A DNA stretch of 64,000 nt from Candidatus Latescibacterota bacterium (GCA_963668435.2 CAXXSC010000008.1:1427476-1491475), one strand, 5' to 3'. Positions 508-21,151 are shown, numbered from the stretch's first letter. The notes: generated by a model from the sequence alone, not told the origin. Numbers and translations are program-made.

Positions 508-1839
508 ATGAACAGACGGGGATTCATCACAACATCGGCTGTGGCGGCGGCCATGACAGGCGTTTCCGGCTGCAAGGTTGAAAAAATACAGAAAGACGAA
601 CCCTCCGCAAAAAAAGCCGCGATCAGCACTCTTGCCGGACGGTCGCTCAGTGAGATCCGCGAGGAATACCGCTACTGGCTGATGGACGATTACATCCCGT
701 TCATCTATCAATACGTCTATGACCACGAAAAGGGCGGTTTCATGTGCAACACCGACCGTGACGGCACAAACAACTCGACAGGCAAAAGCGCCTGGTACGA
801 GGGCCGCGGCATCTGGGTGCATTCCTTCCTTTACAACAAGATCGAGGCCGACCCGCGTCATCTCGAGGTAGCGCGAAAATCCGTGGATTTCATCATGGGT
901 CACCGCCCGAAAGACGACAGTTTCTGGATCAGCGCCTACGACAGGGACGGCAATCCGAAAAGCGGACCCGGTGACATCTACGCAAGCCTTTTTATCGCCA
1001 ACGGCCTCGCGGAGTACTCGAAAGCCGCGGGCAACGAGGAATACTGGGATATCGCCAGACAGATCCTCCTTTCCTGCATGAAGCGCTATGACCGTGACGA
1101 TTATGATTACGCTGTCTATTACGGACCCTCGGAAAAGCATGAGAAACCGGCGCGGGTACTTGGGCACTGGATGGTGCTGATCAGGATGGCGACCCAGATG
1201 CTGGAAAATCGCAGCGATCCCGAGATCGAGAAGCTTGCCGGCCGTTTTGTCGACGCTATAATGAAACACCACTTCAATCCCGATTACGGTCTCATGAACG
1301 AGGTGATGAAACATGATCTCACACGTGCCGAACCGCCCTATGACCAGTTTTCATACACCGGCCACGCTATCGAAACGCTCTGGATGCTGATGTACGAGGC
1401 TGCCCGCAAAAAGGACAGCGCCCTTTATAACGATACCTGCGACATGTTCCGCCGTCATGTGGAAGTTGCCTGGGACGATGTTTACGGCGGCTGTTTCCGC
1501 TGCCTCGACAACGTGGATGCCTATACATGGAAGACCGACAAGGTGCTCTGGCTTCAGGAGGAGGTGCTGATCGGCACGCTGTTCATGATCGAACACAGCG
1601 GCGACCCGTGGGCGGTCGAATGGTTCGACAGGATGTACAATTATGTCATGGATAAATTCCCACTGAAACAATATGGTTACTCGCTCTGGCTTCTCGGCGG
1701 CGACAGGAAAGTCACATTCACACCGGGCAAAGCAGGCCGTGTGGGCAATTTCCACCATCCACGCCACCTTATGCTGAACCTGCTCGCCCTCGACCGTATC
1801 ATCAAAAATGGGGGCGCGGCATCCGGGCTTTTCGGCTGA
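508..1839 (+). CDS. AGE-superfamily (N-acylglucosamine 2-epimerase-like, alpha/alpha-6 barrel) protein with a Tat signal and lipobox, paralog 1
   Basis: N-terminus is MNRRGFITTSAVAAAMTGVSGC (twin-arginine RRxFI plus lipobox VSGC). AGE-type motifs present: HEKGGFMCNTDRDGT, WYEGRGIW, GHAIETLWM, WDDVYGG, VLWLQEE, GNFHHPRHLM. Confidence 0.8.
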   Translation: MNRRGFITTSAVAAAMTGVSGCKVEKIQKDEPSAKKAAISTLAGRSLSEIREEYRYWLMDDYIPFIYQYVYDHEKGGFMCNTDRDGTNNSTGKSAWYEGRGIWVHSFLYNKIEADPRHLEVARKSVDFIMGHRPKDDSFWISAYDRDGNPKSGPGDIYASLFIANGLAEYSKAAGNEEYWDIARQILLSCMKRYDRDDYDYAVYYGPSEKHEKPARVLGHWMVLIRMATQMLENRSDPEIEKLAGRFVDAIMKHHFNPDYGLMNEVMKHDLTRAEPPYDQFSYTGHAIETLWMLMYEAARKKDSALYNDTCDMFRRHVEVAWDDVYGGCFRCLDNVDAYTWKTDKVLWLQEEVLIGTLFMIEHSGDPWAVEWFDRMYNYVMDKFPLKQYGYSLWLLGGDRKVTFTPGKAGRVGNFHHPRHLMLNLLALDRIIKNGGAASGLFG

Positions 1840-1906
1840 ATAATCGAGAATTTTAAATCCAAACATGACATGAACTGATTTTCCACTCATTTTCACGGGA
1901 AAGACA

Positions 1907-3235
1907 ATGAAACGCAGATCATTTCTCAATACAGCGCCTGCTGCGGCCCTTGCGGTTTCCGGCTGCGGCAAGGTCGAGGAAATCAAACATTCGCAGGCAG
2001 CACCGGAGATCACACTTGCCGGTAAAAGCCTCAGCGATCTACGCGACGAGTACCGCTACTGGCTTTTCGAAGATTTCCTGCCATTTCTGGAAAAACATGT
2101 GGTCGATCACGAATACGGCGGTTTTATGTGCAATACCGACCGTGACGGCACCAATATCACGCAGGACAAGCGCGGCTGGTACGAAGGCCGCGGCATCTGG
2201 GTGTATTCATTCCTCTACAACAATTTCGGCAGAGAGAAAAAGTGGCTTGAAATTGCCGAAAAATCAGTGAATTTCATCATGCGCCACGATCCCGGCAGAA
2301 AAAAACTCTGGCCCGAACATTTCACGCGGGAAGGAGAACTGAACGGTCCGCATGACAGCCGAGGTTACGGCAGTCTGTTTATCGCCAACGGCCTTTCTGA
2401 ATTCGCCGTCGCGACAGGAGATACGAGCTACCGGACACGGGCCAGGGAAATACTCCTTGATTTCGTCGAATATTACGACCGGCCGTCCTATGCACCCGGC
2501 GCAGCGAGAGGGCCGCTTGGCAATACAGCCCCCCTTCTGCCCGGAGCCCGCGTACTGGGCGTCTGGATGGTAATTATCCGCCTCACGACACAGATGCTGA
2601 CCCATGAATACGATGCCGACCTCAAAGCTGTGAACGATCGTTGTATCGAGGCAATCAGGAAATTCCATTTCAATCCAGAATTCGACCTTCTGAACGAGGT
2701 CATCAATCACGACATGACACGTCCCGACAATGAAATCTCGCAACTGTCATATCTCGGGCACGCCATCGAGACACTCTGGATGCTGATGGCCGAGGCGGTC
2801 AGACGCAAAGACAAGGAGCTGTATTTCACCGCCGCGGAATGGTTTCATCATCACGTGGAGGTCGCGTGGGACGATGTCTATGGCGGCATATTCCATTCGC
2901 TGAAACATGTCAACGACAACATATTCGACACGAAGAACAAGGTGCTCTGGGCACAGGAGGAGGTCCTTGTCGGCGCACTCTCGATGGTGGAACATATCGG
3001 CGAGGATTGGGCGCGGGAATGGTTCGGCAGGATGTATGACTACGTTCTCGACAAGTTCCCACTCGCGCAGTACGGTTTCCCGATCTGGAATCTCGCCGCG
3101 GACAGGAAAGTGACCTTTGTGAGGAATTATTCGAGGATCGGTAATTTCCACCATCCGCGTCACCTGATGCTGAATATCCTGGCACTCGACCGCATGATAG
3201 AAAGAAACGGCGCGGTTTCAGACGTTTTTGCCTGA
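1907..3235 (+). CDS. AGE-superfamily protein with a Tat signal and lipobox, paralog 2
   Basis: N-terminus is MKRRSFLNTAPAAALAVSGC. Carries the same motif set as paralog 1 (HEYGGFMCNTDRDGT, WYEGRGIW, GHAIETLWM, WDDVYGG, VLWAQEE, GNFHHPRHLM). Confidence 0.8.
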   Translation: MKRRSFLNTAPAAALAVSGCGKVEEIKHSQAAPEITLAGKSLSDLRDEYRYWLFEDFLPFLEKHVVDHEYGGFMCNTDRDGTNITQDKRGWYEGRGIWVYSFLYNNFGREKKWLEIAEKSVNFIMRHDPGRKKLWPEHFTREGELNGPHDSRGYGSLFIANGLSEFAVATGDTSYRTRAREILLDFVEYYDRPSYAPGAARGPLGNTAPLLPGARVLGVWMVIIRLTTQMLTHEYDADLKAVNDRCIEAIRKFHFNPEFDLLNEVINHDMTRPDNEISQLSYLGHAIETLWMLMAEAVRRKDKELYFTAAEWFHHHVEVAWDDVYGGIFHSLKHVNDNIFDTKNKVLWAQEEVLVGALSMVEHIGEDWAREWFGRMYDYVLDKFPLAQYGFPIWNLAADRKVTFVRNYSRIGNFHHPRHLMLNILALDRMIERNGAVSDVFA

Positions 3236-3455
3236 GCATCCGAACTTGCCGTATACAGGAGATAATGTCCACTCAGATTTCGGCGCCAACCGGAACATTA
3301 TGCGCTGAGACAATGAAACTTGCGGCTGGCGGAATCAATGCGTATCATTATGTCATTGAACAGGATACCGTACTCATCCCATATGCCGGGGAGAAGAGAG
3401 AACTGATTTGAAAAATATGAGTAACGAATAGATCCCATCACACGTGGAGGTCAGC

Positions 3456-4790
3456 ATGAAACGCAGACAGTTTTTCGGCACCGGGGCTCTTGCAGGCGCT
3501 GCAGCGGCAGGACTTTCCTGTGCACAGCAGGCACCGGAACAGACATCAGCGGGCCCGTCGGCCACCGACAATAACGGGCATCTTGCCGGTAAAACGCTCG
3601 TGGAACTCAGGGAGGAACATCGTTACTGGCTGTATGAAGATTATCTGCCGTTCCTCGACAAGTACGTAATCGACAGTGAATACGGCGGTTTCATGTGCAA
3701 CACCGACCGCGACGGTACCAATCTCAATAAAGACAAGCGTACCTGGTTCGAGGGCCGCGGCATCTGGGTGGCCTCTTATTTCAACAATAAGGTGGAAAAG
3801 AATCCGCACCAGGTGGAAATTGCCCGGAAATCGGTCGAGTTCATCCTGAAACACAACCCGACCGGCCCAGAGCTCATGCCGGTGGGATACACACGCGAAG
3901 GCAAGCCGCTCAAAAACGAGCCTGATCCCATTTTCTACGGCGACATGTTTGTGGCGAACGGATTCCAGGAATATTCAGAGGCCTCGGGCGAGGAGAAATA
4001 CTGGGATACAGCGAAAACGATCGTCAAAAAATGCCTCGATATCTATGACAACCGCAAGGGCTATGGCAGCATGCCAGCCACTGACACGCTTCCGGCAGTC
4101 GAAAGCCCCCGCATGCTCGGTCACTGGTTCGTCCTTCTGCGCTGCACGACTCAGATGCTGGAAAAACGCGATGATCCGGAGCTCAAAGCAATCAACGACC
4201 GCTGCATCGAGGCAATCATGGACCGTCACCACAACCCGGCCTACGATTTGATCAACGAATACATCAACCACGACATGAGCCGTATCGATAACGACCGTGG
4301 CCAGGTTGTCGTGGGGCACGCACCGGAAACACTGTGGATGGTGCTGTTCGAGGCTGTCCGCCGCAAGGACAAGACACTCTTCGACCGTGCCGCAGCCTCA
4401 CTGAAACGCCACATCGAGGTCATGTGGGACGATGTCTACGGCGGCCTGTTCACAAGCCTCAACCATGTAGACCGCAATGAGTGGAGCACCGGCAAGGCGC
4501 TCTGGCTTCAGGAGGAGATATTGATCGGCACACTCTGCATCATCGAACATACCGGCGCCGAATGGGCAAAAGAATGGTTCTCGCGGATGTACACATATGT
4601 CATGGATAAGTATCCGCTGAAACAGTATGGCTACCCGCTCTGGATCATCTACGCGGACAGAAAAGTCACGTTCGAAGAGCATACCAACCGTGTCGGCAAT
4701 TTCCATCACCCCCGTCAGCTGATGACAAACATGAAGGCACTCGACCGCATGATAGAACGGGGCGGAAAGATTTCTGGGCATTTCGGGTAG
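3456..4790 (+). CDS. AGE-superfamily protein with a Tat signal and lipobox, paralog 3
   Basis: Start moved from the track's GTG at 3444 to the ATG at 3456, which follows GGAGG. N-terminus is MKRRQFFGTGALAGAAAAGLSC. Motifs: SEYGGFMCNTDRDGT, WFEGRGIW, GHAPETLWM, WDDVYGG, ALWLQEE, GNFHHPRQLM. Confidence 0.8.
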   Translation: MKRRQFFGTGALAGAAAAGLSCAQQAPEQTSAGPSATDNNGHLAGKTLVELREEHRYWLYEDYLPFLDKYVIDSEYGGFMCNTDRDGTNLNKDKRTWFEGRGIWVASYFNNKVEKNPHQVEIARKSVEFILKHNPTGPELMPVGYTREGKPLKNEPDPIFYGDMFVANGFQEYSEASGEEKYWDTAKTIVKKCLDIYDNRKGYGSMPATDTLPAVESPRMLGHWFVLLRCTTQMLEKRDDPELKAINDRCIEAIMDRHHNPAYDLINEYINHDMSRIDNDRGQVVVGHAPETLWMVLFEAVRRKDKTLFDRAAASLKRHIEVMWDDVYGGLFTSLNHVDRNEWSTGKALWLQEEILIGTLCIIEHTGAEWAKEWFSRMYTYVMDKYPLKQYGYPLWIIYADRKVTFEEHTNRVGNFHHPRQLMTNMKALDRMIERGGKISGHFG

Positions 4791-5083: not shown

Positions 5084-6399
5084 CAGTAGTGTCCCAACGT
5101 TATAAATTAAAAACCATGTAAAGAATTGATAATAAATATGATAGAAAAAAATAAGACCTGTATCGACTTGAAAAGTGTATTAAACTATGACCTGTCCTAT
5201 AGCAAAGGAGAGGTCGATGTATACAGGTCGTACGGTTTTTTCACAACTCATGGATATATTACCATGGAGACGATTTCAAACATGTGTTAAGCGGTATTCG
5301 GGCAACTATAAAGTAAAGGAGTTCACCTGTTCTGATCAATACCGCGTGATGGCTTTTGCTCAACTGACATATCGTGAAAGCTTGCGAGATATTGAAGCCT
5401 GTTTACGGGCAATGAACACCAAGCTGTACCACATGGGAATCAGAAGTACTATTTCCCGCAACACACTGGCACATGCAAACGAAACACGCGACTGGCGAAT
5501 CTATGCTGATTTTACACAGGTACTTATCGAGCATGCGAGAAAACTATATACTCATGAGCCGTTCGGTGTTGAGTTGGACCAGACAGTGTATGCGCTCGAT
5601 TCAACGACCATAGACTTGTGTTTGTCCGTATTCCCCTGGGCACAATTCCGAAAACGGAAAGGAGCGATCAAACTTCATACACTCTTGAATCTGCATGGAA
5701 ATATTCCGGTATTGGCAATTATCACACATGGCAAAGTCCATGATGTAACGATTATCGACAGTTTACTTCCGGAAGCAGGTGCATTGTATATCATGGATCG
5801 CGCTTACATAGATTTTGACCGGCTTCACTGTATTCATAACGCAAATGCGTTCTTCATTACCCGAGCAAAAAAGAACCTGCAATTCAAACGAGTGTATTCA
5901 CATGTTATCGATAAATCAACCGGACTTAAATGTGACCAAACCGTTGTTCTAAAAGGATATTATACACAACAAAAGTACTGTGACAAACTACGACGAATCC
6001 GATTCTATGACTCAAAAAAAGGTAAGAATCTGGTCTTTCTGACTAATAATTTTGACCTACCTGCTTTGACCATTACAGAGTTATATCGTTGCCGCTGGCA
6101 AATTGAACTGTTTTTCAAATGGATCAAGCAGCACCTGAGAATCAAATCATTTTATGGCACATCTGAAAATGCTGTCAAATCTCAAATATGGATTGCTATA
6201 TCTGTCTATTTATTAGTCGCCATCATGCGAAAAGAACTGAAAATCGACCTTAGTCTCTACACAATTCTACAGATTCTAAGTGTCTCGCTGTTTGAAAAAG
6301 GTCATATTTATCATATACTTACAGAAAACAACAATTCAATCGTGAACCATGAAAATCCTAACCAATTGAATTTATTTGACTAATGTTGGGACACTACTG
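5084..6399 (+). mobile_element. IS4-family insertion sequence, 1316 bp, apparently intact
   Basis: Terminal inverted repeats are CAGTAGTGTCCCAACGTTA (5084..5102) and TAATGTTGGGACACTACTG (6381..6399), matching at 18 of 19 positions. It contains a single DDE transposase ORF and is flanked by a perfect 9-bp direct repeat. Confidence 0.85.
5217..6383 (+). CDS. IS4-family DDE transposase
   Basis: Start placed at the ATG after AAGGAGAG (the track starts at 5187). N-terminal MYTGRTVFSQLMD...RRF segment is typical of this transposase group. DDE candidates: YALDSTTIDL, IMDRAYIDF and the Y-x2-R-x3-E-x6-K signature YRCRWQIELFFKWIK. Confidence 0.85.
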   Translation: MYTGRTVFSQLMDILPWRRFQTCVKRYSGNYKVKEFTCSDQYRVMAFAQLTYRESLRDIEACLRAMNTKLYHMGIRSTISRNTLAHANETRDWRIYADFTQVLIEHARKLYTHEPFGVELDQTVYALDSTTIDLCLSVFPWAQFRKRKGAIKLHTLLNLHGNIPVLAIITHGKVHDVTIIDSLLPEAGALYIMDRAYIDFDRLHCIHNANAFFITRAKKNLQFKRVYSHVIDKSTGLKCDQTVVLKGYYTQQKYCDKLRRIRFYDSKKGKNLVFLTNNFDLPALTITELYRCRWQIELFFKWIKQHLRIKSFYGTSENAVKSQIWIAISVYLLVAIMRKELKIDLSLYTILQILSVSLFEKGHIYHILTENNNSIVNHENPNQLNLFD

Positions 6400-6714: not shown

Positions 6715-7731
6715 TTAAGGTGTACTTTTCTCATACAGCAAGTGTTTTCTGATACCTCCTTTCCCCAGGTTATAATCCCTCCTGAGTTTCAGCGTTTCAC
6801 GTTTTATTTTATCCCGCAGATTGAGACAATCCCGTTTCCTTCCGAAGTACACGTCAGCAGGAGTCAGGTTATTAAGTGACTCGTGATAGCGGTGATTATT
6901 GTAGTGATCAACGAAGTCGCCGATTTCCTGTTCCAGTTCACCAGGAAGGTAATAATTCAGCAAGTTGACGACATTCTTCAGTGAGCGGTGATAGCGCTCT
7001 ATCTTGCCCTGTGTCTGAGGATGATAGCGAGCGCCACGAGTATGGGACATATCCCTTTCTTCAAGGTACTCCTTCAGATCACGGGATAGATAACAGGGCC
7101 CGTTATCCGAGAGCAGTCTGGGCCTGTGCCGGACTTTCACACTATCGATACCGGCTTTTTCTCTCGCCATATCAAGTGTATCCATTACATCAAGGGCAGC
7201 CATAGTTGTCGTGAGCTTCCATGCCAGGATATACCGTGAATAATCGTCCATGACGGTGGAGAGATAGTACCATCCCCAGCCGACTATCCTGAAGTATGAG
7301 AAGTCGGTCTGCCAGAGCTCATGCACCTCTTTCGTCGGACGCTTGAACGTATCGGCAGCCGATATCACGATGTACGCCGGACTCGTGATCAGATCATAGG
7401 ACTTGAGTATCCGGTAGACACTCGACTCGGAGATGTAATAACCGTAGCTGTCAGTAATATGCCATGCCAGCTCCCGTGGCGACTTATCGGGAAGCTCAAG
7501 GGCAATAGCTACCACCTGGTCTTTCACCGGGGCAGGTATCCTGTTCCAGAACTTTTTCGGACGGGGTTTCCTGTCGGCAAGGCCATCATAGCCATCTTCC
7601 GCGTATTTTCGATACCATGCGTAAAAGGTGCTACGGTTAATAGCAAGCTCTCGCAAGGTCTGGCTTATCGACAGCGCCGATTCCTCTACCAGCCTGATTA
7701 CCTCCATTTTTTCAGCCTGTGAATATCGCAT
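6715..7731 (-). CDS. IS3-family transposase OrfB (HTH plus rve integrase core)
   Basis: N-terminal HTH region (SISQTLRELAINRSTFYAWYRKY). DDE core: WQTDFSYF, LLSDNGPCY, HPQTQGKIERYHRSLK. Confidence 0.85.
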   Translation of the reverse strand: MRYSQAEKMEVIRLVEESALSISQTLRELAINRSTFYAWYRKYAEDGYDGLADRKPRPKKFWNRIPAPVKDQVVAIALELPDKSPRELAWHITDSYGYYISESSVYRILKSYDLITSPAYIVISAADTFKRPTKEVHELWQTDFSYFRIVGWGWYYLSTVMDDYSRYILAWKLTTTMAALDVMDTLDMAREKAGIDSVKVRHRPRLLSDNGPCYLSRDLKEYLEERDMSHTRGARYHPQTQGKIERYHRSLKNVVNLLNYYLPGELEQEIGDFVDHYNNHRYHESLNNLTPADVYFGRKRDCLNLRDKIKRETLKLRRDYNLGKGGIRKHLLYEKSTP

Positions 7732-8323: not shown

Positions 8324-9082
8324 ATGCTTAACGCTCCTATTTGCTGGATGGGTGGAAAGAGACGGCTCCGCAGTACTATCATTAATCGACTGCCTGAACA
8401 TACATGTTATACAGAAGTTTTTGGCGGTGCCGGATGGGTTTTATTTGGGAAAGAACCTTCAAAAGCAGAAGTGTACAACGATATCGACGGCGACCTCGCC
8501 AACTTATTCAATATCATCAAAACCGCACACAGAGCTTTCATCGAGGCATTCGATCTCATCCTTGTGAGTCGAAAGCTATTCCGTGATTTCATCAATACCG
8601 ATCCCGACGATTTGAATGAGGTTCAACGAGCGGTTCGGTTCTACTATCTTATCAAGACATCTTTCGGCGGGAAAGGGTATCACTTCGGATATTCAAAAAG
8701 GGACGCAGCGCGCCTTTCTCTACTTAATATCGATGAGACTATAAAAGAAATTCATGCGCGTCTGAAGGGTGTCTATATCGAGAATGAATCTTATGATAAA
8801 GTCATTACCCGATACGATGGCCCGCAAACAGTTTTCTACCTCGATCCGCCGTACTATCAGACTGCGACCTATCGCTTCACTTTGACATACGAAGATTATG
8901 AGCGCCTGGCCACAATTCTGGCCGCAATCGAAGGGCGTTTTCTTCTCTCAATAAATGACCACGAATCGATGCGTGAGGTTTTCAGCGATTACAATATAGA
9001 AGAGGTGAAAGTGGGGTACTCAGTCGGGCGGGTAAGCGAGTCGAGGCGGCAGTATGGCGAGCTGCTGATTTCAAATTATTAA
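8324..9082 (+). CDS. D12-class (Dam-like) N6-adenine DNA methyltransferase
   Basis: Motifs: WMGGKRRL, FGGAGWV (SAM motif I), NDIDGDLANLF, LDPPYYQT (catalytic DPPY). Confidence 0.85.
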   Translation: MLNAPICWMGGKRRLRSTIINRLPEHTCYTEVFGGAGWVLFGKEPSKAEVYNDIDGDLANLFNIIKTAHRAFIEAFDLILVSRKLFRDFINTDPDDLNEVQRAVRFYYLIKTSFGGKGYHFGYSKRDAARLSLLNIDETIKEIHARLKGVYIENESYDKVITRYDGPQTVFYLDPPYYQTATYRFTLTYEDYERLATILAAIEGRFLLSINDHESMREVFSDYNIEEVKVGYSVGRVSESRRQYGELLISNY

Positions 9083-9163: not shown

Positions 9164-9976
9164 ATGCCGAGAATTGTACCAAGTCAGATCGTTGTGTTAA
9201 TAGATATGTTATTTCCAAATCTTGATACATCGAAAAAGAAAGAAATTGTTATCTCTTCTAAAGACAGAATTAGTGTCGCCACTATTGTTGAGTTAATAGA
9301 CAAGTTATCAATAGACAAATATCCTTTAAACTCGGGGCAATATATTAAAATTTTATATGGATTAACTGGATTAAAACAAATTATCGAAATATGGAAAACA
9401 AATCCACAAACAAGTATTCAAAGCTATCTTGGTACCAATGCTACTAATCCAATATTGATGATCCGCAAAGCGCTTGATAAATGTCCCGATGAATTTATTT
9501 CACCTGAATCTTCAAAACTTGAATTTGTTAAAGATGATGAGTGGCGAAATAACCTTGAACTTGATATAAGTTCTATGGAAAGGGCCCTAAGTAACGGAGA
9601 ATGGAAAGCATCCACGATTATCGCGGGTTCAATAATTGAGGCTCTGTTATTATGGGCTTTGGATGGCCGTGAGAAAAGAAAAGTAACAGATACTGCTACG
9701 CGTCTCAAAAATAGCAGTATAATAAATACACAGCCAAGTTCTCTTAACGATTGGAGCCTGCATCATTACATAGAAGTTGCACGTGCAATGGGTATTATCA
9801 GCGAAAGAACTAAAACGGAGACTAATCAAGCAAAAAACTTTCGTAATTTGATACATCCCGGACGGGAAATAAGAAAGAATCAAAAATGTAGCAGAGCGAC
9901 AACATTATCAGCAGTAAGTGCCGTTGAATTTGTTATTGAGGACTTGAGGAGTTATTGTGGCAATGGCTCAGAATAA
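9164..9976 (+). CDS. hypothetical protein with a possible HEPN/DUF4145-like C-terminal domain
   Basis: AT-rich ORF with a strong AAGGAGG ribosome-binding site, 82 nt after the methyltransferase. The C-terminal helical region reads AGSIIEALLLWAL ... LHHYIEVARAMGIIS ... NFRNLIHPGRE (R227-x3-H231). The spacing is one residue shorter than the canonical Rx4-6H, so the assignment is tentative. Confidence 0.6.
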   Translation: MPRIVPSQIVVLIDMLFPNLDTSKKKEIVISSKDRISVATIVELIDKLSIDKYPLNSGQYIKILYGLTGLKQIIEIWKTNPQTSIQSYLGTNATNPILMIRKALDKCPDEFISPESSKLEFVKDDEWRNNLELDISSMERALSNGEWKASTIIAGSIIEALLLWALDGREKRKVTDTATRLKNSSIINTQPSSLNDWSLHHYIEVARAMGIISERTKTETNQAKNFRNLIHPGREIRKNQKCSRATTLSAVSAVEFVIEDLRSYCGNGSE

Positions 9977-9995
9977 AACTGAGCCATTTTGTTTT
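9964..9995 (+). terminator. rho-independent terminator overlapping the stop codon of the 270-aa ORF
   Basis: Stem TGGCTCAG / CTGAGCCA (8 bp) with the TAA stop in the loop, followed by TTTTGTTTT. Confidence 0.55.
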
Positions 9996-10143
9996 CATTG
10001 CATGTATATTTCAAAATCGTTTTGTATTATTGAAAAAAATGAGCGCGGCGATTTATCTCAATCATCCGGGGTTATTTATCGCGCGCGGCAACAGAATGGC
10101 ATCTTCATCTCCTCTTTTCTTAAAAACAGCTGAATTCCGGTTA

Positions 10144-10524
10144 TCAGTGATTGTTGTTATAGATCAGCACCAGTCCGAAAACGAGGATAATGGAGCAGCA
10201 TGATATAAGGCTTCTTTCCGGCTCAATTCTATCAATTTTGTCTTCCATGCGGTCAAGACGTTTATTGACCTTACCCATGTCAGAATACTCTTCAAAAGTA
10301 TCGACTTCGCCGTTCTCATACACTATGGCTTTTATATTTTTTTTGAGAATTGTCCTGGTCTCGGCACCGTTATCAATGCTGACATCCACATTTTCCTCGC
10401 GGATAAGCTTTACGGCACCTTTGATTTTCGTACCATCCTTCAAATGAACGACATCCTGTGCGGCAGCAAGTGTTGAGCAGCATAAGATCAAAGCCATAGC
10501 CAGCGACAAGAGTTTTCTCATCAC
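10144..10524 (-). CDS. hypothetical exported protein with a C-terminal TM anchor
   Basis: Signal peptide MMRKLLSLAMALILCCSTLAAAQD. Hydrophobic C-terminus ISCCSIILVFGLVLIY. The start abuts the stop of the upstream ORF. Confidence 0.6.
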   Translation of the reverse strand: MMRKLLSLAMALILCCSTLAAAQDVVHLKDGTKIKGAVKLIREENVDVSIDNGAETRTILKKNIKAIVYENGEVDTFEEYSDMGKVNKRLDRMEDKIDRIEPERSLISCCSIILVFGLVLIYNNNH

Positions 10525-11424: not shown

Positions 11425-12276
11425 ATGGAGCATACAATGTATTCTGAACTCACGAATATCAACCGGCGGCCAAAGCCATACGAATTTTATACCGCGAAAG
11501 AGCTGTGGACCGATGAGCACACGTCACAGCAGATGCTTCAGTACCACCTGAACGAGTCTCTCGATGTGGCCTCGAGGAACAGGCGTTTCATCGACGGCTC
11601 AGTAAACTGGATGGCCTCCCGTTTTTCTATCGGGGAAGGGACGGCTGTCTGCGATTTCGGTTGTGGTCCGGGCCTCTACTGTGAACGTTTCGCGCGACTT
11701 GGTGCCACGGTCACCGGCATAGATTTCTCGGAAAACTCACTTCGCCACGCGCGGAGTAAAGCTGCCGAAAACAGTCTCGATATCGATTATATCTGTCAGG
11801 ATTACCTGGCATTCGAGACAGACAGGCGATTCGACCTGATCACCATGGTCATGTGCGATTTCTGCGCATTGAGCCCGGAACAGCGATCACGGATTTTGGG
11901 GCTGTTCCGCAGTCTGCTAAACGAAAGCGGCTCAGTGGTGCTCGATGTCTACTCGCTGGCAGCTTACGAGGAACGCCGGGAATGCGCGGTATATGAGCGC
12001 AACCAGTTGAACGGACTCTGGTCCGCGGATGATTATTTCACGTTCCTGAACACGTTCAAGTACGACGATATCAGCGTTGTGCTCGACAAATACAGCATTT
12101 TCGAGGAAAACCGCAGCCGTACGGTATACAACTGGCTGCAGTATTTCAGCCTTGAGACTCTAACAAAAGAGTTTGAAGCGGCTGGATTCCATATAAGCGG
12201 GCAATTCTCGGACATTGCCGGGAAACAGTACAGTCCCGACTCGAAAGAAATCGCAATCACAGCGAATAAGTGCTGA
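11425..12276 (+). CDS. class I SAM-dependent methyltransferase
   Basis: Motif I is VCDFGCGPGLY, followed by GIDFSENSL. Rossmann-type layout. Substrate unknown. Confidence 0.8.
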   Translation: MEHTMYSELTNINRRPKPYEFYTAKELWTDEHTSQQMLQYHLNESLDVASRNRRFIDGSVNWMASRFSIGEGTAVCDFGCGPGLYCERFARLGATVTGIDFSENSLRHARSKAAENSLDIDYICQDYLAFETDRRFDLITMVMCDFCALSPEQRSRILGLFRSLLNESGSVVLDVYSLAAYEERRECAVYERNQLNGLWSADDYFTFLNTFKYDDISVVLDKYSIFEENRSRTVYNWLQYFSLETLTKEFEAAGFHISGQFSDIAGKQYSPDSKEIAITANKC

Positions 12277-12284
12277 AACAGGAA

Positions 12285-12314
12285 CAGGCCGTCTCATTTG
12301 AGGCGGCCTGTTTT
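12285..12314 (+). terminator. rho-independent terminator
   Basis: Stem CAGGCCGTCT / AGGCGGCCTG (includes one G-U pair) with a 6-nt loop, then TTTT. Confidence 0.6.
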
Positions 12315-12725
12315 ACTATCCCCTTCTGCCAACACATCCCAATAACCGACAACAAAGCAAGCCGGGAACAATTCAATGCATGTCCGGCAATACCCGCACA
12401 ACACAAACAATCTGATCACAATCGCAGTATAAAATTATTTTATAGTGCTCACATGCTCTAACTCCATCCATGCGCCACACCCAACACCCACCCCGCAACA
12501 CTCGAAACTTATGCATCTATATATAAAACACTTAGATCAACACTAAACATACATATAGTCGTCATTCATCAACATCATTTGTGCACACAAACATCACAAG
12601 GCAAATTGTTTACCATCATTTTTTAACTTGACATTTGAATACTTATTGCATTTTCTTAACTGAAACAACATATGACGAAACTTGCATTATCACTTAAGGG
12701 CGGGCATGCAAAGAAGGAGAGTCCA

Positions 12726-13085
12726 ATGAAACGTATCACGACTATCGCAGTTTCAACATTCGCGATCGCCATTATCGTGGCCGTGAGTGTTCTCACGTCT
12801 GCGGAATCGACAACAGCCGCAAACTTTGAAACACTGTCACTGAAAGACATGCAGGTTATGTACGGCAGTGCATATGGCGAAGGTTATCTTTGCCATAATC
12901 AGTGGCATGACTGCACCGCTACGGCAGCCTCACCGCCGGAAGACTGTACTGGTGAATGGATAAACGGATTTTGCGAATATACCGGCGGCGCAGGTGTTTA
13001 TTGTAACGTTCACAAAGCCAGTACTCAGTGCGCTGATCCCGATTGCATAACAAAAACCGATGTTTGGTACTGCACGAGCTATTAA
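12726..13085 (+). CDS. 119-aa Cys-rich peptide precursor with an N-terminal hydrophobic segment and a double-glycine-type leader motif
   Basis: Start moved to the ATG after GAAGGAGAG (the track starts at 12672). Hydrophobic segment is ITTIAVSTFAIAIIVAVSVLTSA. Residues 37-48 (LSLKDMQVMYGS) fit LSxx(E/D)(L/M)xx(I/M)xG(G/S). The 71-aa C-terminal part contains 8 Cys. Confidence 0.7.
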   Translation: MKRITTIAVSTFAIAIIVAVSVLTSAESTTAANFETLSLKDMQVMYGSAYGEGYLCHNQWHDCTATAASPPEDCTGEWINGFCEYTGGAGVYCNVHKASTQCADPDCITKTDVWYCTSY

Positions 13086-13141
13086 AACCTAAAAACCGCG
13101 TGCCCGCCCCTCTTTAAACGTTTATAACCAAGGATAGACTC

Positions 13142-14566
13142 ATGTCACGGAAGATGTTTTTTTTTATAATTTTGTTTATTGTTTGTTTTTCTCATGTATT
13201 CGTTTCTCAATCTGACACAGAACCTTTTTCTCGTGGCTTAAAGTGCGGCCCATATTGCCTTTATTACATATGCCAGGAACTTGGGATCGAGACAGATTTG
13301 GAAACAATATGCCGTGAATCGGGCTTTCAAAGCGGAATTGGCACTTCCATGCTCGGTATTTACAAAACGGCCCTGAACTACGGATTGCCTGTGGTCCCGT
13401 TAAGAACCGACATGGATGGTTTATGTAACATCGGATTCCCGAGCATAGCATATGTTCTTGACAGCCATTTTATTTTGGTAACAGATTGCAAAAAGGACAG
13501 CATCGTTGCCAGAGAATACCCATTACCACAGAAAGCGATACATAAGGACAAATTCAAACAAATGTGGTCAGGGGAACTTCTGGCATTCACATTGACAGAA
13601 AAACAACGGAATAAAATATTATCGTCTGACAAAAAGGAAATCCAAGGCCCCAGAATCGCCTTTGTCAGCACAATTCGTGATTTCGGCAGGGTTGATATCA
13701 ATACGACCTTGAAGCATACCTTCTCATTCAAAAATGTCGGGACAGAGAACTTGACCGTCAATACAAGGTCAACGTGCAGCTGTACCGTGGCCAATCTTTC
13801 AGACAATGTCATTCCACCTGGCGGAAGCGGAAAAATACAAGTCAAATACAATACAGAGGGAAAAAAAGGAGTTTCAAATGTAAAAGTTTTCTGCCGGACA
13901 AACGACCCGGTAAACAAAATCACTATTCTTCAACTTCTTACTGAAGTAGAACAGGAGTTTGTGACTGTCCCCGACAACCTGAATTTTGACCAAATAATAA
14001 AAAATCATAAAGCGTCAAAAATCATAAAGCTGTATAAATCTTCAAATGACAATTTTACAATTACCGATATCGAATGCCCGAAAGGAATAATTGCCCGCGT
14101 ACTCCCGAAAGAATCCAATGACCAGTATAACCATATAATCCCTGTTGAAATCGAATTACAGAAAACGCAGGAAATTGGTGAATTTTCAAAAAATATTGTG
14201 CTCAAAACAAACGACAAAATGAGGCCTGAAGAAATTGTACCGGTCAGAGCAGAAATTGTATCACCAGTCGAAATTTTCCCTGAAAAGCTAATAATAACGA
14301 ACATACCCGTTAACACATCCATTGAAAAAGAAGTAACAATAAAAAGCAGGACAGGCGAGCCTATAAATCTGACCAATGTGGATATCTCGAATGACACCGT
14401 CTCAATTAAAGAAATTTTACAGAATAACGGATCAGAATGCCGGTTACTGCTTTCAATAAATGCTTCACAATATCCGGCAATTATCAATGATATATGCAAC
14501 ATGGACATCACCGGTGCAATCAACACAAAAGCCTCATTCCATATTCTTGCGCAAGTCACTAAATAA
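13142..14566 (+). CDS. secreted peptidase-C39-domain protein fused to DUF1573-type Ig-like domains
   Basis: Signal or anchor segment is MFFFIILFIVCFSHVFVSQS. C39 pattern: KCGPYCLYYICQELG, GTSMLGIYKTALNYGL, PSIAYVLDSHFILV, FKQMWSGELLAF. DUF1573 pattern: FGRVDINTTLKHTFSFKNVGTENLTVNTRSTCSCTV...IPPGGSGKIQVKYNT. About two further Ig-like segments follow. Confidence 0.8.
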   Translation: MSRKMFFFIILFIVCFSHVFVSQSDTEPFSRGLKCGPYCLYYICQELGIETDLETICRESGFQSGIGTSMLGIYKTALNYGLPVVPLRTDMDGLCNIGFPSIAYVLDSHFILVTDCKKDSIVAREYPLPQKAIHKDKFKQMWSGELLAFTLTEKQRNKILSSDKKEIQGPRIAFVSTIRDFGRVDINTTLKHTFSFKNVGTENLTVNTRSTCSCTVANLSDNVIPPGGSGKIQVKYNTEGKKGVSNVKVFCRTNDPVNKITILQLLTEVEQEFVTVPDNLNFDQIIKNHKASKIIKLYKSSNDNFTITDIECPKGIIARVLPKESNDQYNHIIPVEIELQKTQEIGEFSKNIVLKTNDKMRPEEIVPVRAEIVSPVEIFPEKLIITNIPVNTSIEKEVTIKSRTGEPINLTNVDISNDTVSIKEILQNNGSECRLLLSINASQYPAIINDICNMDITGAINTKASFHILAQVTK

Positions 14567-14621
14567 TAATATCATACACCTTTAGCAACGGGTCAATAAT
14601 TCACAAAAGCGGGAGCATATC

Positions 14622-15623
14622 ATGTTTAGCAAAAAAACAATGCAAATCTGTATCAACATATTATGCTGGCTTGTAGTATTCTATGTTCCGACGAACAATG
14701 CCAAGGCAGAAACAAATAGCTTTTTACTTGAAATCGCTAAAACCGGTGATGCCATGTTAAAAAGCGGCAAATGCGATGTTGACTTCAAGAAAACAGTGTC
14801 GGAAGATGTCATACAGGCAGAGAAGGAATATGATCGGGAACATCAGCAGAAAACAAAGGAAGAAGGCCATTATATTTTTTACAAAGAAAATGAAACGACG
14901 ATGAAGATAAAAATGCTCTTCGATTCAGTCAAACTTTATGTAGAGAAAGAATGGGATAGCGTTTATGAAAACGACATGAAAATATCATATCTCACCAAAA
15001 AAGCCGACAATGGCGAAAAGATGGACTCGTATACTTTTGAAGAGAACCATTTTACACATGAAACATGGACGAGAGCGTCCATTAAACCGGCGCGAAAAGT
15101 ATCACCAAAATATCAACCTCGCTATTATGGTTATTTTATTTACAGCACGCCGGTCGCCGATTTTTTGAGCGGTACATTCAAAACCAGTATTTTTGATTCA
15201 CTTGATACTATCGGTCAAGAGTCTATCGATGGTATTGACTGCTTGATTTACAAAGGACATATTGCAAATTCCGATTCAACGGTAACAGCATGGATTGCTC
15301 CGGAACTGCTATGCCGTCCCAAGAAAATTGTACTGGAAACATCAATTCAAAAACAAGTCACAACGATCACACACAAACTGCACAACGACTATATATGGTT
15401 CCCGGATGTCGTTGAACATCAATACTATCGTGCCGAAAACAAGAATTCTCAAAAAAAACTGGCCAGTTTCTGGAAAATGATTTTCGAGGATGTTACCTTG
15501 AACTGCGACATTCCTCCTGAGACATTCAGCATTCAATATCCCATAGGCACCAAAGTATACGATTTTAGAACAGAACTGCTCTTAACAGTTGGGACCGACA
15601 TGCAGAACACGCCCAAAAACTAA
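14622..15623 (+). CDS. exported hypothetical protein, LolA/RseB-like (outer-membrane lipoprotein-sorting-like) by pattern
   Basis: Signal peptide ends in NNAKAE. The C-terminal half reads GQESIDGIDCLIYKG...TVTAWIAPELLCRPKKIVLE...FEDVTLNCDIPPETFSIQYPIGTKVYD, as in LolA-like or DUF4367-type proteins. The fold assignment is inference only. Confidence 0.6.
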   Translation: MFSKKTMQICINILCWLVVFYVPTNNAKAETNSFLLEIAKTGDAMLKSGKCDVDFKKTVSEDVIQAEKEYDREHQQKTKEEGHYIFYKENETTMKIKMLFDSVKLYVEKEWDSVYENDMKISYLTKKADNGEKMDSYTFEENHFTHETWTRASIKPARKVSPKYQPRYYGYFIYSTPVADFLSGTFKTSIFDSLDTIGQESIDGIDCLIYKGHIANSDSTVTAWIAPELLCRPKKIVLETSIQKQVTTITHKLHNDYIWFPDVVEHQYYRAENKNSQKKLASFWKMIFEDVTLNCDIPPETFSIQYPIGTKVYDFRTELLLTVGTDMQNTPKN

Positions 15624-20556: not shown

Positions 20557-20590
20557 CGTTTCAAACGGTTTGGCAGGCAGGAGAATCACT

Positions 20591-21151
20591 ATGTTAAACG
20601 GATTTGACATATTTTTTGCTGTCGTGACAATTGGATTCGCGATACTCGGATTCAGGGAGGGTTTTGTTAAAAGCATTCTCAACCTGATCGGATTCGTGGC
20701 CGCTGTCATTGTCGTGCTGGCTTTTTCCCAGACGATCTTTGCTATTGCGGAGCTCATCCCGGTCCTGCCGCATGCTCTCAGCGCCTTTATCCTTTTTATA
20801 ACGGCGGTCGTTGCCTGTACCGTGATCGTTCACATCATAGCCTCCTTTGTCCAGAAACTCGTACACATGACACCGGCGGCTTTTATCGACAACGGGCTCG
20901 GTTGTGCGTTCGGCATTGTCAAGGCGCTCGTACTCGGCGGCATTGTCGCTTTTGTGCTGTCATGTGCGCCGCAGGGCAGTTTTGTGAGATTGCAGTATGA
21001 CAATTCCGTCTCGGCACCGCACCTCGTTACTTTCATTGCGGAGAGCATACCGTTTATCAGCCGTCTGACGCCCTATTATCCATCATTTACACCTGAACCA
21101 TCAGAACCGGAACAGAAACAAAATGAACAAAGAGAAAAAAACCTCATATAA
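20591..21151 (+). CDS. cvpA: CvpA-family membrane protein
   Basis: MLNGFDIFFAVVTIGFAILGFREGFVKSILNLIGFV plus about four TM segments. Start taken at the internal ATG (the track starts at 20570). Confidence 0.75.
   Translation: MLNGFDIFFAVVTIGFAILGFREGFVKSILNLIGFVAAVIVVLAFSQTIFAIAELIPVLPHALSAFILFITAVVACTVIVHIIASFVQKLVHMTPAAFIDNGLGCAFGIVKALVLGGIVAFVLSCAPQGSFVRLQYDNSVSAPHLVTFIAESIPFISRLTPYYPSFTPEPSEPEQKQNEQREKNLI

Follow-up and report, generated by a model that had tools for sequence, protein, structure and literature searches.

Double-glycine (GG) leaders and C39 peptidases are customarily regarded as parts of ATP-binding cassette (ABC) exporters, acting at the cytoplasmic face. Here we describe, in a 64,000-nucleotide stretch of a Candidatus Latescibacterota genome (GCA_963668435.2, CAXXSC010000008.1:1427476-1491475; the window, numbered from its first letter), a three-gene module at positions 12726-15623 that probably forms a self-contained, ABC-transporter-independent system for the maturation of a secreted disulfide-rich peptide. 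Its genes, g1, g2 and g3, encode a Cys-rich precursor with a GG-type leader, an exported C39 protease carrying immunoglobulin (Ig)-like domains, and an exported LolA-fold protein. The trio recurs in many uncultured bacteria, where the family is widespread and unannotated, and on comparative evidence it looks like an undescribed form of transporter-independent peptide maturation, in which Sec export combined with extracytoplasmic C39 cleavage is quite likely.

The original prediction, made from the sequence of the window, had placed three co-directional, tightly spaced genes in an AT-rich block. The open reading frames (ORFs) were confirmed on the same strand at 12726-13085, 13142-14566 and 14622-15623, with 56 and 55 bp between them, and the block has a GC content of 40.3%, against 51.1% for the window. 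The features of g1 are as follows.

12714-12719, plus strand: Shine-Dalgarno sequence AAGGAG, 6 nt before the g1 ATG, read from the sequence
12726-13085, plus strand: g1, pre-pro-peptide of 119 residues, ORF starting at ATG 12726
12726-12803, plus strand: g1 residues 1-26, predicted Sec signal or signal anchor (-3/-1 rule, by eye)
12804-12869, plus strand: g1 residues 27-48, 22-residue propeptide containing the leader LSLKDMQVMYGS
12834-12869, plus strand: the leader LSLKDMQVMYGS, g1 residues 37-48, with predicted cleavage after Gly47-Ser48
12870-13082, plus strand: g1 residues 49-119, 71-residue core with 8 Cys, predicted mature disulfide-rich peptide

Reading g1 from its AAGGAG-backed start gave the 119-residue product, with a leader at residues 37-48 and a 71-residue core of 8 Cys, that had been proposed. 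The N-terminus consists of MKR and a 20-residue hydrophobic stretch, followed by TSA/ES (slash, predicted cut). In a public gene call g1 has 137 residues (12672-13085), from a start at 12672 where no comparable ribosome-binding site is found. This call is probably an over-extension; the shorter start was preferred because of the strong AAGGAG before ATG 12726 and the canonical signal-peptide N-terminus that it yields. The leader LSLKDMQVMYGS agrees with the consensus L(-12) S(-11) x x E/D(-8) L/M(-7) x x Φ(-4) x G(-2) G/A/S(-1), with Leu37 at -12, Met42 at -7 and Met45 at -4, ahead of Gly47-Ser48. For LahT150-type proteases the leader rule is a hydrophobic residue at -4, -7 and -12 together with GG, GA or GS (PMC10885120). 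The g1 product had no Pfam or NCBIfam family match, and its core no sequence match in the PDB.

The second gene encodes the candidate processing enzyme.

13142-14566, plus strand: g2, 474 residues, exported C39 protease with three Ig-like domains
13142-13213, plus strand: g2 residues 1-24, predicted signal peptide MSRKM-FFFIILFIVCFSHVFV-SQS/D, read from the sequence
13241-13591, plus strand: g2 residues 34-150, Peptidase_C39 domain (Pfam)
13244-46, 13466-68 and 13514-16, plus strand: Cys35, His109 and Glu125, the last at the Asp position of the catalytic triad
13649-14563, plus strand: g2 residues 170-474, three tandem beta-sandwich DUF1573/ASH-type Ig-like domains (Pfam, AlphaFold2 (AF2) and Foldseek)

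The complete C39 pattern and the DUF1573 fusion that had been read in g2 were recovered by Pfam above cutoff, with Peptidase_C39 (PF03412) at E 4.7e-15 (56 bits, cutoff 22) and a DUF1573/HYDIN-type Ig match at E 1.6e-19. The motifs C35-G-P-Y-C-L and H109-F-I-L-V are present, and the catalytic Cys and His, on which the proposal hung, both align with C39 profiles. A profile of 40 g2-family sequences matched the peptidase domains of PCAT1 (4ry2, E 2.5e-21), ComA (3k8u) and LahT (6mpz), with E values from 2.5e-21 to 9e-18. In the PCAT1 alignment the family's CG-motif Cys falls on the PCAT1 Cys (CG(A)AC), HF(L/V)V on HFVV and (I/V)xDP on ADP; Cys35, Gly36 and His109 are invariant among the 40 diverse members. 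In the AF2 model of g2 (pLDDT 77), a helix at the N-terminus precedes the protease domain, which is of alpha/beta type, and a linker helix then leads into three beta-sandwich domains. The Foldseek matches of this model were dominated by HYDIN/ASH and other tandem-Ig proteins and added nothing new on the protease domain.

A HMMER search with the g2 profile, exhaustive over 1.84 billion representatives of 50%-identity clusters, returned 553 clusters at E <=1e-30. The best 150 of these 553 included 84 proteins of at least 430 residues with the Cys motif inside the first 100 residues, and nearly all of these full-length representatives carry an N-terminal hydrophobic segment. Some family members have N-termini that resemble a lipobox by eye (P0037, ...YASGC; P0040, ...FMGC). 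Existing annotations include a 'predicted double-glycine peptidase' in IMG and a 'DUF1573 domain-containing protein' at NCBI. Word-indexed protein searches were insensitive, g2 alone retrieving 2 full-length homologues and g3 alone only itself, so that profiles were needed.

The third gene had been described as LolA-like, an assignment that holds at the level of the fold, from AF2 and Foldseek, despite the absence of a Pfam match to g3 itself.

14622-15623, plus strand: g3, 333 residues, exported LolA-superfamily protein (AF2 and Foldseek)
15240-15242 and 15291-15293, plus strand: g3 Cys207 and Trp224, invariant in the family

The signal of g3 is predicted at residues 1-29 (..NAKA/E). Its AF2 model, built with a homologue alignment, reached a pLDDT of 83 and a pTM of 0.76. 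The best Foldseek match in the PDB was LolA3 of Porphyromonas gingivalis (9tp6, E 5.7e-9), with further matches to the DUF1329 protein 4z48, LolA of several species, NE2245, LolB, RseB, MucB and LprF; the top matches all belong to the LolA superfamily (E 5.7e-9 to 1e-4, probability 1.0). A g3 profile search of PDB sequences gave no match. A profile built from three syntenic g3 homologues retrieved 15 further unannotated proteins of 212-333 residues, and the g3-homologous N-terminal domain of one protein, P0067, scored above threshold for PF17131 LolA_like (39.1 bits, cutoff 30). In contrast to known LolA-superfamily proteins (~180-240 residues), g3 has ~330 residues, lacks a direct Pfam match, carries a family-invariant Cys, and has peptide and protease genes as partners where those proteins have LolCDE or an anti-sigma factor. 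The module has no linked Lol genes.

A direct connection between g3 and g2 came from fused proteins. Among the best 150 g2-family representatives, 13 have an N-terminal extension of at least 200 residues, and in a 12-protein subset this extension aligns with the C-terminal half of g3 (hmmsearch, to 1e-9; hhalign, 98.1%, E 8e-14). Such LolA_like-C39-DUF1573 fusions provide Rosetta-stone evidence that g3 and g2 act jointly. Cys207 and Trp224 are invariant in 32/32 distinct LolA-like partners; in some of these Cys207 is the sole Cys of the mature protein, and it is kept in 7/12 fusions. A mixed-disulfide role is possible for this invariant and unpaired thiol in an exported partner of Cys-rich peptides.

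The precursor, too, proved to be one of a family. Three-part precursors resembling g1 were found at the same syntenic position in 14 other loci, giving 15 complete precursors for comparison (the window's included, with L005/L030 and L019/L021 as close variant pairs). All 15 begin with K/R and a hydrophobic segment, continue with the leader and end in a Cys-rich core, following the pattern signal, L-[ST]-x-x-[DE]-M-x-x-Φ-x-G-G, and 8-15 Cys. The norm for GG leaders, an extreme N-terminal position and no Sec signal, is thus violated in 15/15. Conservation within the leader is as follows.

Leader position -12: L or M in 15/15 precursors
Leader position -11: S or T in 15/15 precursors
Leader position -8: D or E in 14/15 precursors
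Leader position -7: M in 14/15 precursors
Leader position -4: hydrophobic in most of the 15 precursors
Leader position -2: G in 14/15 precursors
Leader position -1: G in 14/15 precursors, the window being the sole GS variant

The cores, on the other hand, are highly variable between loci (55-103 residues, 8-15 Cys) and otherwise little conserved. When 1187 small ORFs were scanned for the leader motif together with at least 4 core Cys, 13 were positive (11 distinct sequences); every one adjoins a g3 homologue and most also a g2 homologue, which places the combination beyond chance. [quoted passage not shown] The window's g1 did not match TIGR04149.

The hydrophobic N-termini admit a second interpretation, in which the g1 segment stays uncleaved and anchors the precursor in the inner membrane, the C39 cut after GS then freeing the core. 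The LolA-like protein would in that case handle the hydrophobic anchor or leader as LolA does acyl chains, and the LolA fold does have a hydrophobic cavity. Long hydrophobic regions in the precursors of the window (20 residues), L001 (22 residues) and L003 agree with such shedding. Most other precursors, however, have a short region of 12-16 residues and then a clear AxA site, as is typical of cleaved signals; in high-GC loci Leu(-12) comes 1-4 residues after a signal-peptidase site of the AxA type, as in MRSKLKAICLIAALLAALGASAAAASPL-LSADDMSTLRGG. We consider membrane shedding unlikely.

The proposed link between g2 homologues and small Cys-rich ORFs was upheld by a survey of gene neighbourhoods. 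Loci were collected from context look-ups and one metagenome scan, whose query, an 8-sequence g2 subset, samples only the DPLCGP[KNQ]SL branch, and their genes were annotated with custom hidden Markov models (HMMs). A scan of genome contigs returned the Latescibacterota metagenome-assembled genome already found and two unrelated DUF1573 loci. Besides the window, 17 distinct related loci pair g2 and g3 homologues, 12 of them with the two genes adjacent or in tandem pairs and 5 with only BlaI/M56 and precursor genes between them. The gene orders are listed below.

Precursor, C39-DUF1573, LolA-like: the window and L001
Precursor, LolA-like, C39-DUF1573: L010/L014, L017, L019, L020, L021, L022, L023 and L026
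The same order, truncated upstream: L013, L015, L016 and L025
C39-DUF1573, BlaI, BlaR1-like M56, precursor, LolA-like: L002 (= L006, Latescibacterota metagenome-assembled genome), L003 (GCA_000478645.1), L005 and two further contigs
Partial views of this five-gene order: L009, L029 and L030

Where no partner was visible, the protease gene stood at a contig end (L011, L012, L018) or the locus was a short fragment (L024, L027); L027 resembles the five-gene type.

Several loci hold more than one precursor or partner. L014 4957-10916 (= L010 1695-7654) has three precursor/LolA-like pairs around one C39-DUF1573 gene, a count made less secure by the third LolA-like gene (9435-10448), which was called by size and N-terminal similarity and went undetected by the g3 HMM and Pfam, and by the leader of the second L014 precursor, which ends in GK, not GG. 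L019 carries two precursor/LolA-like pairs, and L020 two LolA-like genes. The 1:1 pairing of precursors with diverged partners favours peptide-specific binding and, by analogy, resembles bacteriocin/immunity or cargo/chaperone logic. L019 1445-2867 encodes a second small Cys-rich protein, which has a signal peptide and lacks a GG leader, and after it a divergent LolA-like protein; partners of this kind may thus also handle peptides that do not depend on the protease.

Two other gene types were noted in these loci. Immediately upstream of the precursor gene, L014 (3506-4876), L017 (1399-3774), L019 (51-1430) and L026 (4767-6209) have a gene for a tetratricopeptide repeat (TPR) protein (TPR_6/YfiO-like), possibly a fourth member of the module in the precursor, LolA-like, protease branch. 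Proteins with thioredoxin/glutaredoxin-like CxxC segments are encoded beside the protease gene in L012 (1758-3332), L014 (11242-12861) and L024 (408-824); they would fit disulfide handling of Cys-rich peptides. A thioredoxin/DsbD-like reading of the L012 and L014 proteins, in which the segment is fused to a multi-pass membrane domain, was set aside as evidence, the ArsG/DsbD-like similarity being sub-threshold.

No exporter accompanies the module. An ABC ATPase was scored as an ORF of at least 180 residues combining a Walker A with an ABC signature motif; neither the 64 kb of the window nor any family locus contains one, and the only match is in L007, an unrelated DUF1573 locus. Pfam analysis of the 43 window ORFs besides g1-g3 (all larger non-overlapping ORFs) likewise found no PCAT, HlyD, TolC, BlaI or M56. 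The two scans agree with the earlier observation that neither an ABC exporter nor an HlyD adaptor lies near the block. The window encodes Omp85, MlaD, MlaE and CarboxypepD_reg/DUF5686 proteins, which show the host to be diderm. The CvpA homologue at 20570-21151 ('colicin V production protein') was weighed as a possible part of the module and discarded: it is a housekeeping gene beside MutS2, 5 kb away and outside the low-GC island.

The closest systems are the PCATs and the AMS proteins (ABC transporters for maturation and secretion), such as PCAT1, ComA, LagD, CvaB and LahT. They share with the module a homologous PF03412 domain with aligned Cys and His, the leader logic L(-12)/S(-11)/E-D(-8)/L-M(-7)/Φ(-4)/GG, and the combination of a conserved leader with a hypervariable core. 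In contrast, g2 lacks both the transmembrane and the nucleotide-binding domain; instead it brings an export signal of its own, along with three Ig-like domains. A Sec-type signal here precedes the leader, so that cleavage would be periplasmic and uncoupled from transport.

A periplasmic C39 protease has one precedent, and every part of the module belongs to a known family. FapD of the Pseudomonas Fap amyloid system is a Sec-exported, stand-alone C39 protease that acts in the periplasm and requires its active-site Cys (PMC5557850). Like FapD, g2 has an N-terminal signal-like segment and a stand-alone C39 domain, a likeness drawn from the description rather than from sequence. FapD differs in its fapABCDEF setting, with an outer-membrane channel (FapF) and amyloid subunits, and in a substrate without a canonical GG leader; no Ig-like domains, LolA-like partner or Cys-rich peptide are mentioned for it (PMC5557850). 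No Fap-like genes occur in the related loci, and the neighbours in the window are a methyltransferase and an HTH-cupin regulator. FapD is thus the only, and a partial, precedent found for the g2 topology. The original prediction had also known of no description of such an arrangement; with FapD, a Sec-exported C39 protease of the periplasm (PMC5557850), the idea has at least a partial precedent. Full-text searches of the open-access literature returned no paper joining DUF1573 with C39 and no description of a Sec signal, a GG leader and a periplasmic C39 protease together, an absence that is not proof of novelty.

An alternative consistent with a 64-kb view of the genome is that an unlinked cytoplasmic PCAT exports and cleaves the peptides, the C39-DUF1573 protein acting on another substrate instead, such as envelope proteins or the LolA-like protein. 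FapD, the one studied periplasmic C39 protease, has no canonical GG substrate, which would agree. We judge this improbable: PCAT substrates do not show the K/R and hydrophobic N-terminus of 15/15 precursors, the sole motif conserved across precursors is a C39 leader, mostly found beside an exported C39 gene, and no family locus contains an ABC ATPase motif pair. The proposal of Sec export and extracytoplasmic cleavage gains comparative support from 15/15 precursors with a signal followed by a leader, from the N-terminal signals of the protease family, from the periplasmic LolA-type fold of a partner that is in some cases fused to the protease, and from family loci with no ABC ATPase.

We propose the following course for the module. 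The g1 product would be made as a pre-pro-peptide whose N-terminal signal directs passage through Sec; signal peptidase I would probably cut near Ala26, or the segment might remain as a membrane anchor. The 22-residue propeptide and 8-Cys core would reach the oxidising periplasm, where the core would form disulfides. The g2 product, likewise exported by Sec, would recognise the amphipathic leader through its papain-like C39 domain (Cys35/His109/Glu125) and cut after Gly47-Ser48, freeing the 71-residue core, so that chemistry performed by PCATs at the cytoplasmic face would be shifted to the periplasm. Its three Ig-like domains could serve as a spacer or docking arm. The g3 product would physically contact the protease and act as a chaperone or escort devoted to the peptide, binding the pro-peptide or the mature peptide specifically and possibly protecting the producer; whether g3 binds the peptide we regard as evenly balanced. 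The released peptide would be a bacteriocin-like competition factor, with signalling as the main alternative.

A pre-pro arrangement of this kind is familiar from the heat-stable enterotoxin of E. coli, in which a signal peptide and a pro region precede a small, Cys-rich mature peptide that is oxidised in the periplasm. The first stage of its secretion is Sec-dependent and needs the Sec signal (PMC8277102). The likeness lies in the Sec-dependent pre-pro logic ahead of a later export step. The enterotoxin differs in having neither a GG leader nor a C39 protease, and in leaving the periplasm by MacAB-TolC, a pump with no linked counterpart here.

As to function, the conserved leader combined with hypervariable, multi-copy cores favours a competition peptide, and an antimicrobial role is a possibility that we place somewhat short of even. 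Signalling or autoregulation stays in play because of a BlaI/BlaR1-like gene pair within the Latescibacterota-type clusters, positioned as follows.

L002 2867-4586, L003 1958-3765 and L005 4200-5959: BlaI-like repressor and BlaR1-like M56 protease genes between the protease and precursor genes
L009 3853-5595 and L030 45-1801: a BlaI/M56 pair of the same type, in Latescibacterota-type clusters

In the truncated L029 the M56 gene alone is present. The C-terminal ~140 residues of the cluster M56 proteins had no Pfam match. L003 additionally holds a 53-residue BlaI-like fragment at 5589-5750.

With the same processing, the product could then be an extracytoplasmic autoinducer, sensed by the BlaR1-like M56 protein, which would inactivate the BlaI-like repressor; the autoinducer would have the LolA-like protein as receptor or chaperone, and the window would hold a regulator-less copy gained horizontally. 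The C39-DUF1573, BlaI, M56, precursor, LolA-like order, or the part of it that can be evaluated, is seen in seven loci, and in L001 a BlaI/M56 pair lies 1.6 kb upstream. GG-leader pheromones that autoregulate bacteriocin loci are, moreover, an established theme in Gram-positive bacteria. Against signalling, the window and 11 further distinct trio loci lack BlaI/M56, which indicates that the pair is not part of the core module; in the 64 kb of the window, custom HMM and Pfam scans found no Penicillinase_R (BlaI) or Peptidase_M56 gene. Hypervariable multi-copy cores (three in L014) with their own LolA-like partners are, in addition, more typical of toxin/immunity-style diversification. We therefore regard an autoinducer as rather unlikely. 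A broader synthesis would join all of these elements in a widespread pathway of diderm bacteria, with GG leaders following Sec signals, maturation of families of disulfide-rich peptides by C39-Ig proteases, for each peptide a LolA-fold chaperone or immunity protein of its own that acts covalently or through its invariant thiol and, in Latescibacterota, peptide readout by BlaR1-like/BlaI pairs. Such a pathway is doubtful as a whole; if true, it would amount to a new peptide quorum-sensing system or a self-regulated bacteriocin circuit in Latescibacterota.

Several observations weigh against transporter-independent maturation by Sec and a periplasmic C39 protease. The support consists of sequence and comparative evidence, with signal peptides judged by eye, and at 20 residues in g1 and 22 in the L001 precursor the hydrophobic segments are long enough for membrane anchors in place of cleaved signals. 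The leader of the window ends in GS rather than GG. In the protease family, the residue at His+16 is D in 42/68, E in 7/68 and N in 7/68 members, and the window has Glu125, not Asp; Glu at the third catalytic position is chemically plausible though not canonical. The oxyanion-hole Gln typical of C39 domains, which we take to lie six residues before the catalytic Cys, is likewise not conserved as it is in PCAT/AMS proteins: Gln occurs at Cys-6 in only 11/78 family members, and the window has Phe. The catalytic Cys is replaced by Ser or Gly in P0071, P0072, P0077, P0091, P0110, P0116 and P0151, so that not every g2 homologue is necessarily a protease; these full-length C39-DUF1573 homologues may be pseudo-proteases or use another nucleophile. 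The Foldseek TM-scores of g3 are moderate (0.35-0.57), partly because g3 is ~100 residues longer than the matched proteins. Finally, the search for exporters covered 64 kb of a contig of at least 1.67 Mb, leaving room for an unlinked PCAT or MacB-type exporter elsewhere, and no outer-membrane exit route is encoded.

If maturation proceeds as proposed, GG leaders and C39 proteases would be uncoupled from ABC exporters, Sec carrying out export and a dedicated exported protease carrying out maturation. The precursors would supply natural, sequence-defined substrates for the periplasmic C39 class, FapD, the one studied member found, having no known substrate, and hundreds of disulfide-rich peptides from uncultured phyla would become candidate antimicrobials or signals. 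The LolA fold would take on a new function, partnering both a secreted peptide and a protease. Stand-alone GG-leader proteases active in an oxidising compartment could join LahT150 as tools for leader removal. For genome mining, GG-peptide searches that require a PCAT close by or exclude ORFs with Sec signals will overlook such precursors.

The module lies in an island spanning 5.0-16.4 kb with ~43% GC, against 53% for the window without the 5-16.4 kb region. Other genes of the island are as follows.

5187-6383: IS4-like DDE transposase gene
6715-7731, minus strand: rve-type transposase gene
8324-9082: D12 DNA adenine methyltransferase gene
9164-9976: DUF4145 protein gene
11425-12276: SAM methyltransferase gene, flanking the module upstream

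Downstream, g3 is flanked by a convergent gene for a helix-turn-helix (HTH)-cupin regulator, and then by tdh-like and kbl-like housekeeping genes. A low-GC island with transposase and methyltransferase genes suggests horizontal arrival, and the module probably sits in horizontally acquired DNA. The same features, 40% versus 53% GC and, in the island, two genes for transposases besides those for methyltransferases, would be expected if the block were decaying cargo without a current function. Such decay is very improbable, given that all three ORFs are intact, the catalytic residues and g3 Cys207 and Trp224 are kept, and g1 is preceded by a strong Shine-Dalgarno sequence, with weaker purine-rich tracts before g2 (AAGGA) and g3 (GGGAG).

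Upstream of g1, positions 12277-12725 form a 449-bp region without genes, AC-rich in composition (for example CACACCCAACACCCACCCCGCAACAC), in which neither an Rfam match nor a convincing sigma-70 promoter was found. The Rfam scan of the whole window also gave no matches. The promoter scan told little, 13 promoter-like sites being seen where 10 were expected, and downstream of g3 no terminator was found. PADLOC reported no defence-system match. In a tblastn search against plasmids the sole match was to the C39 domain of an Enterococcus PCAT. Elsewhere in the window, a 126-residue exported protein encoded on the minus strand at 10144-10524 matches the Leptospira LA_0442/LA_0875 N-terminal domain below threshold (34.5 bits against a cutoff of 43), and three tandem N-acylglucosamine 2-epimerase-like paralogues of 443, 442 and 448 residues occupy 508-4790.

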